Source: Candidatus Altiarchaeota archaeon
Lineage (GTDB): Archaea; Altiarchaeota; Altiarchaeia; IMC4; QMZM01
DNA: 32,163 bases
Direction of reading: 5' to 3'
Assembly: GCA_034659295.1 (NCBI GenBank)
Contig: JAYEGX010000074.1
Span: 1 to 32,163, forward strand
In this document: positions 14,919 to 17,605 of the stretch, in pieces
Numbering within the stretch: the stretch's first letter is position 1
Layout: every line of letters begins with the position of its first letter
Program-made: the position numbers and the translations under genes
The notes under the pieces: generated by a model
Told to the model about the DNA's origin: nothing
Seen by the model: only the letters and a program-made list of their open reading frames with translations
The model's database searches: none

Positions 14919-15152
14919 ATGGACCTGGTTTACGAACTGGCGGCTATCGCAGCCCTTGCGTTATTTGCCGTCCTTTTTCTTTTATTCTTTATTGGCATAC
15001 TCTCCTCAGTCTTTGGTGTAGCTTGGGGGTTTATGGATTTCCTCCTTGAGCCCATGGCTTCACTGTATTACAGAATATTCGGCAAGAAGGAGGATAATTC
15101 AAGCAGCGATTATTCTATCGACCAGGGGGAGGAGGTTGAAAAGAAAAACTAA
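14919..15152 (+). CDS. Small membrane protein
   Basis: Long hydrophobic N-terminal segment followed by a charged tail; starts 2 bp after the AIM24 stop. Confidence 0.65.
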   Translation: MDLVYELAAIAALALFAVLFLLFFIGILSSVFGVAWGFMDFLLEPMASLYYRIFGKKEDNSSSDYSIDQGEEVEKKN

Positions 15153-15943
15153 AGCTTAACCAGCTCAACTGTTTGTATATCACCCCCCCTGTCCGCTATG
15201 GAGGTTACGATAATGTTCAGCGCCTGGTTCACGGCCAGCTCATCAAGCCCTGTGACATCAATAAACACGTCTGTTGTGGAATTTCTTATCCTAGTGAGCT
15301 CCCCGTTTATTATCGGAGGGAAGGACAGTATATCGTTGTTTTTATCCACTATTATGGGATACCTGCTTAACCCGTTAAGGATCCATGCGTACTCTTGACC
15401 CGTGGGGTGTTTCGTTAGTATTTCTTTTGGAGTCAGTTCCTCGGCCATGCCAAGGGGCTTGAATTTTATGCCATCAGGTTTCACTGCCTTGTAGGTGTAG
15501 GGTCCCTCTATTTCTCTCATGTCGTGCACCCCAATCGCTACCTTCTTCCTGTGTCTGCCGTGTGTTACGTGTAATTTCTCCTGCAGGTTCATAAGGGAGA
15601 TCAGACGCTTCTCGTTGAGTGTCAGGTTACGGATTACTGCCGCAGAGATGACGGGCCGTACCTTATCCACAGAGTTATCTATGTTCAGGGTAACACCTGA
15701 CTCTGTGAGTTCATATTCCGTTAAGCCGGTCTCGTCACCCAAAAAACCGTTGAGCGCTCTTGCGAAACCCTCCACAGATAAAAGATCAGGTCTGTTGGGA
15801 AACACCTCAACCACGATTTTGTCCTGGTCTATGCTCTCCAGATCAACCCCCAGCATGGGAATCTTGTCCCATAAATCCTTCGCGCTGTATTGTTTGACGA
15901 GAAGGGAGCGCAGGTCATCGTAGTCTAATTCTATGGTAGGCAT
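15149..15943 (-). CDS. pheT: Stand-alone N-terminal portion of archaeal PheRS beta subunit (B1 plus B3/4 editing domain)
   Basis: MPTI..EVFPNRPDLLSVEGFARAL, NLQEKLH, RKKVAIGVHD, SFPPIING, FIDVTG. It stops at 264 aa, about half the length of a typical archaeal PheT. Confidence 0.85.
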   Translation of the reverse strand: MPTIELDYDDLRSLLVKQYSAKDLWDKIPMLGVDLESIDQDKIVVEVFPNRPDLLSVEGFARALNGFLGDETGLTEYELTESGVTLNIDNSVDKVRPVISAAVIRNLTLNEKRLISLMNLQEKLHVTHGRHRKKVAIGVHDMREIEGPYTYKAVKPDGIKFKPLGMAEELTPKEILTKHPTGQEYAWILNGLSRYPIIVDKNNDILSFPPIINGELTRIRNSTTDVFIDVTGLDELAVNQALNIIVTSIADRGGDIQTVELVKL

Positions 15944-16084
15944 CTTGGTCTTATATCTTTTACCTTACGAATTTAAATCATAAAACATAGATCAGTGTAT
16001 TAGATGAGTAGGATATAAATGAAGCTTTAAACCTTCTTTACTGAATAGATTATACTCTTTCAGCTTTACAGAGCCCAAAAAAAA

Positions 16085-17605
16085 ATGTTTAGGACCAGTG
16101 TAGAGGACATAAAGATTGCGCTGCATGAGCTTAGCGAGATACTGAGGGCAACATCCTTTGTCTTCTTGGTGCCCATAGTATTCACTCTTCTTTATTTCAG
16201 GTGGGATAACATAACACTTCTCTTTGAGAGGGTTATGGTTTTCCTTGTGCCTTTTATCATAGTTTACCTGTTACACCTGCTTTTTGGGAGGATGCCCTGT
16301 AAATATGAGAAAAAAACCAAGCACATAATGATGGCTGTCTCGATGGGATGGATTCTGATTGCTGCCGTGGGAGCAATCCCCTATTTTTTAAGCGGTACAT
16401 TAGGTCCTCTGGATTCATTTTTTGAATCCATGTCCGGCTGGACTACAACGGGCATGACTATGATAGAATACCCTGAGAACCTTTTGGAGGATAAGAAGGA
16501 TATATTATTTTATAGAAGCTTCACCCAGTGGATTGGCGGGGTCGGCATTATTGTCTTGACCATGATAGTTTTCCTAAGGGAGGGAACGGCTGCTATTGAG
16601 TACTATTCCTCTGAGGTGGGCAGCCTGAAGCTTAAACCCAGCATCAGAAAAACCGTCAAGGAGACATGGAAGATCTATATCCTTTATACGATAGCATGCA
16701 CAATACTCCTTTTTCTTGTGGGGATGGACAACATGGATTTATTCGATGCCCTCAACCATTCCATGACTGCTTTGCCCACGGGGGGTTTCTCCACCCACTC
16801 CGAGAGCATCTATTTTTTCCAGAATCCGTTGGTCGAACTAATCCTCATAGTATTTATGATGGCCGGGGGAATCAGTTTCATAATTCATTACAGGGCATTC
16901 GAGGGTAAGAAAAGCCATATAAGCAGGAACATCGAGTTCAGGTACATGGTGGTATTGGTTTTGGTGACAACAGCAGTATTGTTTATTGTCTTCCTGGCAG
17001 ATGAGGGAGCCCTCAACAGCTTACGTATATCATTGTTCCAGACAGTTTCCATATTAACAACAACAGGTTTCGGGACCGCAGACATAGCCGGCTGGCCGGT
17101 ACCAACACAGACCATCCTGCTCCTTCTGATGCTTATAGGCGGGAGTTATGGTTCAACCGGAAGCGGTGTTAAGATGTTGAGGGCGGTGGTTATTGTTAAG
17201 GCACTTGTTTATTCAATTAAGAGGTTCACCCTGCCCAAAAGCGTTATGTTAAGGCTTACGGTGGGTGATAACACCATCGACTACGATGAGATAACCTACG
17301 TGTTCGCCTTTTTTACCACATACCTGCTCATAACCTTTGTGGGGGCTTTTATTCTGACGGCAGTGGGTTATGGAGGGTATGAGTCTGCATCCGCCTCCCT
17401 CTCAGCCATAAGCAACGTAGGCCCCTGCAGCATACCTCTTTTTATAGTAAACGCTGATGGCAAGACAGTAACCAACGATGGATGGTTCAGGATGCCTGAT
17501 TTGGGTAAAATAACACTCATGCTACTGATGTGGGTTGGCAGGCTGGAAATCTTCCCGGTGCTGGTGCTTTTCACCATATTCTTCAAGAAAAAAAGGAGGA
17601 GATAA
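16085..17605 (+). CDS. trkH: Trk potassium uptake membrane protein
   Basis: Four pore loops: FESMSGWTTTG, ALPTGGF, ILTTTGF, AISNVGP. Also GSTGSGVK and C-terminal WVGRLEI. Confidence 0.93.
   Translation: MFRTSVEDIKIALHELSEILRATSFVFLVPIVFTLLYFRWDNITLLFERVMVFLVPFIIVYLLHLLFGRMPCKYEKKTKHIMMAVSMGWILIAAVGAIPYFLSGTLGPLDSFFESMSGWTTTGMTMIEYPENLLEDKKDILFYRSFTQWIGGVGIIVLTMIVFLREGTAAIEYYSSEVGSLKLKPSIRKTVKETWKIYILYTIACTILLFLVGMDNMDLFDALNHSMTALPTGGFSTHSESIYFFQNPLVELILIVFMMAGGISFIIHYRAFEGKKSHISRNIEFRYMVVLVLVTTAVLFIVFLADEGALNSLRISLFQTVSILTTTGFGTADIAGWPVPTQTILLLLMLIGGSYGSTGSGVKMLRAVVIVKALVYSIKRFTLPKSVMLRLTVGDNTIDYDEITYVFAFFTTYLLITFVGAFILTAVGYGGYESASASLSAISNVGPCSIPLFIVNADGKTVTNDGWFRMPDLGKITLMLLMWVGRLEIFPVLVLFTIFFKKKRRR

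Follow-up and report, generated by a model that had tools for sequence, protein, structure and literature searches.

A free-standing PheRS-beta editing half in an altiarchaeal genome: another member of the Altiarchaeales split pheT

Introduction

Does an archaeal gene that codes for the proofreading half of the PheRS beta subunit, and stops where the B3/4 editing domain ends, represent an editing protein in its own right or one part of a divided pheT? The question is raised by an open reading frame, here called pheT-N, in the window that we analysed, a 32,163-nt stretch of a Candidatus Altiarchaeota contig. A sequence-only reading had left two possibilities, an archaeal trans-editing deacylase or half of a split pheT. 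The closest named loci all come from Candidatus Altiarchaeales/Altiarchaeota, which places the organism there, and the best named-locus match of pheT-N, at 86% identity, belongs to the Altiarchaeales MAG ex4484_2.

A split pheT has been described in this lineage before. Bird et al. 2016 (Front Microbiol 7:1221, PMC4975002) reported pheT as two proteins encoded at non-adjacent loci, a synapomorphy of Altiarchaeales, with the split just before B5, in mid-contig, supported by reads and reproduced with three assemblers. The same study (PMC4975002) reported a split dph2 alongside the split pheT and cited other split synthetases; it could not determine the distances between the halves. The case that we describe agrees with theirs in lineage, break, non-adjacent loci and split dph2 and shows no essential difference from it. 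The split was thus already published in 2016, and the window holds another member, real but not new. A literature search found no later paper on the biochemistry of the Altiarchaeales pheT split. To the published description we add the distribution over 61 genomes, the existence of a fused-gene order and the spacing of the halves, together with conserved neighbours (trkH and aRF1), selection measurements and the conservation of editing residues.

Results

An intact front half of PheRS beta

The features of the window that bear on pheT-N are as follows.

15149..15943, (-) strand: pheT-N, coding for the N-terminal half of a PheRS beta subunit that is split; ATG start, 264 aa and a stop codon
15737..15943, (-) strand: B1 domain, about aa 1-69 (Pfam PF18262 PhetRS_B1, residues 1-69, 29.6 bits)
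15152..15721, (-) strand: B3/4 editing domain, about aa 75-264 (Pfam PF03483 B3_4), holding the editing-site equivalents Q121/E122, R132, S207, N213 and T231
15971..15977, (-) strand: TTTAAAT, TATA-box-like, 28-34 nt upstream of the pheT-N ATG; read from the sequence, and at consensus level a candidate promoter of its own
15139..15148, (-) strand: T-run TTTTTCTTTT directly after the pheT-N TAG stop; read from the sequence, a putative archaeal-type terminator
14919..15152, (+) strand: convergent 77-aa small hydrophobic ORF with a 4-nt overlap at the pheT-N stop; listed for context, no PheRS component
16085..17605, (+) strand: trkH, divergent upstream neighbour of pheT-N (Pfam TrkH, 1.2e-61); context

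Real and intact, the ORF at 15149-15943 codes for the proofreading front half of PheRS beta. Its product, whose C-terminal end as read from the ORF is quoted as ...GGDIQTVELVKL and as ...ADRGGDIQTVELVKL, each followed by the stop, matches NCBIfam TIGR00471 (pheT_arch) over model positions 1-264 of 551 with 326 bits, exceeding the cut-off, and residues 1-262 align with PDB 2cxi at E 5.6e-53. An AlphaFold2 model built from an alignment of 36 homologues (pLDDT 91.7) superposes on 2cxi_A with a TMq of 0.91 (Foldseek) and on human PheRS-beta with a TMq of 0.89. The N-terminal B1 and B3/4 editing module of a TIGR00471-type beta subunit is therefore present, and the QEKLH, PPIIN and FIDVTG segments, which had been singled out as retained, are all three found. 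The start, the stop and the pheT_arch, Pfam and 2cxi matches likewise bear out the earlier description of an intact 264-aa frame ending with the B3/4 domain. The 2cxi structure, a fragment of Pyrococcus horikoshii PheRS-beta, shares the B1 + B3/4 fold with pheT-N at 38% identity and with conserved editing residues; it is, however, an engineered piece of a fused 550-aa subunit and includes B5, whereas pheT-N is a natural truncation before B5. B5 and the catalytic-like module are absent from the pheT-N polypeptide and are coded by a separate gene on another contig, C41.

Past the pheT-N stop come the T-run, the convergent 77-aa ORF and then a strong AIM24 gene, an arrangement that leaves no room for a continuation of pheT, and when the whole genome was searched with the pheT_arch model, no match to the C-terminal part of pheT fell within the window. 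The earlier claim that the frame has no downstream continuation thus held. Two congeners carry the same arrangement, with the convergent ORF at 86% and 66% amino acid identity. This ORF (14919-15152(+)), which lies directly after the AIM24 gene and has no Pfam match, is probably a real small membrane protein.

On the other side, pheT-N has a divergent trkH-family neighbour in 29 Altiarchaeota loci; no fused-pheT locus has one (tblastn over the loci). The closest relatives have two tandem trkH paralogues upstream of pheT-N (L023:1-2933, L024:13-2939), one of them ~45% and the other 78-95% identical to the trkH of the window (16085-17605). The window keeps only the 78-95%-identical copy, the other having apparently been lost here or gained in the relatives.

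The complementary half lies elsewhere in the genome

Searched against the whole genome, the pheT_arch model gives exactly two matches, pheT-N on the contig of the window (C74, to model position 265) and a second gene that takes up the model at position 267.

C41:1311-2159, (-) strand: pheT-C, 282 aa; TIGR00471 positions 267-550, 259 bits

pheT-C comprises B5 (residues 17-83) and the catalytic-like module (CLM, residues 90-274). It has a PAP2-family membrane gene on one side and, on the other, the gene for aRF1 (with NIKS and GGQ motifs), which follows pheT-C directly on the same strand after a 28-nt gap (C41:189-2159(-)). This order of pheT-C and aRF1 is kept in all three split lineages examined, which are distant from one another (the own genome on C41, L109 and L111), and is not seen at fused pheT. 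C14 carries pheS, the gene for the alpha subunit (TIGR00468, 376.9 bits).

No full-length archaeal pheT and no bacterial-type pheT that could serve as a hidden full-length copy was found in the own genome, which is 69% complete, or in near-complete relatives; relatives at 90-97% completeness give the same picture. Thirteen relatives at least 90% complete, among them a closed single-contig genome, hold no full-length gene of either type. The genome search proposed to tell a paralogous editor from a split gene therefore came down on the side of the split gene, since it found a C-terminal-only pheT on C41 and no full-length one. As to the initial pair of alternatives, half of a split pheT stands, on the complementary pheT-C and the lack of a full-length pheT, and a paralogous trans-editor beside a complete PheRS does not.

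The split is widespread in the phylum and a fused order exists

Across named loci, the pheT-N homologue measures 263-272 aa in every Altiarchaeota match and 535-577 aa in all other archaea. A public protein collection contains 506 short homologues (length window 145-462 aa); nearly all of the 120 short homologues listed are ~264 aa long, and the named ones are all of Altiarchaeota lineage. Within the order of the window, the two pheT pieces lie at separate places in 41 of 41 relatives (7 families, 23 genera) and are fused in none, so that a full-length pheT in close relatives, which would have spoken against the sequence-only reading, was not encountered. Both halves were found in 53 of the 61 species genomes of the phylum, including one single-contig genome; these 53 comprise the order of the window and a second order with four genomes.

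The pheT split is not universal in Altiarchaeota as now circumscribed. A third order, with 8 species genomes (G053-G060), carries a fused pheT of 537-538 aa that covers model positions 1-551; examples are L105:1267-2880, L106:5492-7108 and L107:5150-6766. The genomes of this order are recent MAGs, among them JBFYKJ01 'Ca. Altiarchaeota PPR_0003'.

The spacing of the halves varies. They lie on different contigs in the own genome (C74 and C41), and are 14.8 kb apart in the congener G003, 355 kb apart in the single-contig genome G026 and 450 kb apart in G033. In G003 both halves share one contig (G003:C2:17943-35522), with window-like segments between them, inverted and reshuffled, and a comparison of G003, the window and C41 shows that within the genus the order of genes near the halves is fluid. 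The 14.8-kb spacing in G003:C2 was at first suspected to be linked to the size of C41, but this proved to be coincidence; relative to the window, G003 is rearranged. The question of which half moved found no answer in the fused-gene order or in the outgroups, where neither trkH nor aRF1 flanks the fused pheT.

The break falls in the linker before B5

Aligned with fused homologues across the junction, the end of the N-half and the start of the C-half both fall within the short linker between B3/4 and B5. [quoted passage not shown] Both halves come with a start and a stop of their own and, by eye, with a TATA-like box ~30 nt upstream. From these signals and the conserved neighbour of each half, we infer that each is transcribed and translated on its own.

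Two ways of joining the halves were considered. A split intein was rejected, the junction having no extra segments of ~100 aa and ~35 aa. Joining at the RNA level, by pairing of the two mRNA ends, found no support: the longest complementary stretch was 8 nt, no better than in shuffled sequences.

Selection and the editing site

Pairwise dN/dS for unsaturated pairs is 0.09-0.19 in the N-half and 0.15-0.26 in the C-half. The check across relatives that had been suggested for the fragment thus reveals purifying selection on both pheT halves. B1, for which we know of no editing role, is retained in all N-half copies.

In an alignment of 34 distinct split N-halves, the equivalents of P. horikoshii Q126, E127, R137, S211, N217 and T236 are invariant. 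Except for N217, we take these to be the editing-site residues of the P. horikoshii enzyme (Q126, E127, R137, S211 and T236), with a numbering that reportedly goes back to Sasaki et al. 2006. The remaining position, N213 in our protein, is the equivalent of P. horikoshii Asn217, for which an editing-site role has been described (PMC3275996).

Relative timing of the pheT and dph2 splits

The own genome also has a split dph2 (PF01866), with positions 1-59 at C80:2235-2414(-) and positions 62-294 at C49:1793-2458(+). This split is common to all three orders, including the one with a fused pheT, which marks that order as a true relative and makes the pheT fission younger than the dph2 fission. In a gene tree of the N-part, the fused and split sequences of Altiarchaeota form one clade (SH-aLRT 88), within which the three orders make a trichotomy. 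The main split order has a short stem (0.061), which speaks for vertical descent; the tree shows neither a burst in rate following the fission nor signs of a horizontal origin. A single pheT fission is compatible with these sequence data, which do not prove it. Our scan narrows the timing of the fission to after the divergence of the fused-gene order, and the pheT fission thereby gains in sharpness as a phylogenetic marker within Altiarchaeota.

Discussion

pheT-N is one half of a pheT divided by a fission that is fixed in Altiarchaeales and that separated the B1 and B3/4 editing module from B5 and the catalytic-like module. We consider it probable that each half is expressed alone and that the products reassemble with alpha to edit Tyr-tRNA(Phe). 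Under this model, beta-N and beta-C would reassociate non-covalently with alpha, which pheS on C14 encodes, to give an (alpha, beta-N, beta-C)2 enzyme, and beta-N would hydrolyse Tyr-tRNA(Phe) in cis, as a fused editing domain does. That pheT-N is functional is favoured by its low dN/dS, its invariant editing residues and the lack of a rate burst.

The step from a functional half to a reassembled enzyme that edits in cis is one that we regard as likely, and comparison of the N-halves argues for it in three ways: B1 is universally retained, evolutionary rates are unchanged, and no tRNA-binding part has been added. Against reassembly, the halves lie up to 450 kb apart and are not co-transcribed, so that equal amounts of the two are not guaranteed.

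The same separation gives some credit to a different reading, in which beta-N is a freely diffusing Tyr-tRNA(Phe) deacylase that edits in trans and alpha + beta-C form a core synthetase devoid of editing. The two halves are not linked and differ in their conserved neighbours, the editing site of pheT-N is intact, and the fold is able to work by itself, as the stand-alone B3/B4 protein CtdA demonstrates. We nevertheless think such an arrangement unlikely. The B1 domain is kept in every N-half copy, the fission was followed by neither rate acceleration nor remodelling, and beta-N has acquired no tRNA-binding parts. The authors who described CtdA argue, moreover, that PheRS B3/4 domains depend on the holoenzyme for tRNA recognition, and CtdA itself is only a remote structural match to pheT-N. 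Were trans-editing nevertheless true, pheT-N would be the first case in nature of an archaeal-type PheRS editing module at work in trans, and a living intermediate for the origin of stand-alone B3/B4 deacylases such as CtdA.

CtdA is a stand-alone B3/B4-type deacylase of canavanyl-tRNA(Arg), and the earlier statement that free-standing B3/4 trans-editors occur in bacteria is correct in that CtdA is one. It resembles pheT-N in being a free-standing protein with a B3/4 editing fold. It differs in being a single domain of bacterial type that acts on tRNA(Arg) and coexists with a complete PheRS, whereas pheT-N retains B1 and supplies the only PheRS editing module that the organism has, no full-length pheT having been found. 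Structure comparison reflects this distance: in the Foldseek search with the pheT-N model, CtdA (9mkl) ranks 35th with a TMq of 0.42, against 0.91 for 2cxi.

A paralogous free-standing editing protein beside a full-length pheT elsewhere in the genome is very improbable. A genome 69% complete could hide such a gene, but the C-terminal-only pheT on C41 exactly complements pheT-N, and no full-length pheT, archaeal or bacterial, turned up in the 13 relatives at least 90% complete; we regard this alternative as largely refuted and effectively excluded. Still less probable, to the point of being negligible, is that pheT-N results from misassembly or a frameshift, or is a piece of a pseudogene in decay. 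Nothing was found in favour of any of these: 53 genomes, each assembled independently, share the same end point of the ORF, which excludes assembly error, pheT-N is under strong purifying selection, a conserved convergent gene lies past its stop, and Bird et al. had read support with three assemblers (PMC4975002).

What remains of value in this locus is a natural experiment, an editing module of the archaeal/eukaryal PheRS type that exists as a separate polypeptide. Among established naturally split synthetases are the LeuRS of Aquifex aeolicus and the AlaRS of Nanoarchaeum equitans, in which inter-domain fission has likewise left one synthetase as two separately encoded polypeptides. Those splits concern other enzymes in other lineages and one species each, whereas the split of pheT has become fixed in two orders.

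Besides the true pheS on C14, the genome holds a second, weak pheS-like match in a 485-aa open frame (C89:3512-3979(-), 79.9 bits), perhaps from a further class II synthetase related to PheRS-alpha or SepRS.
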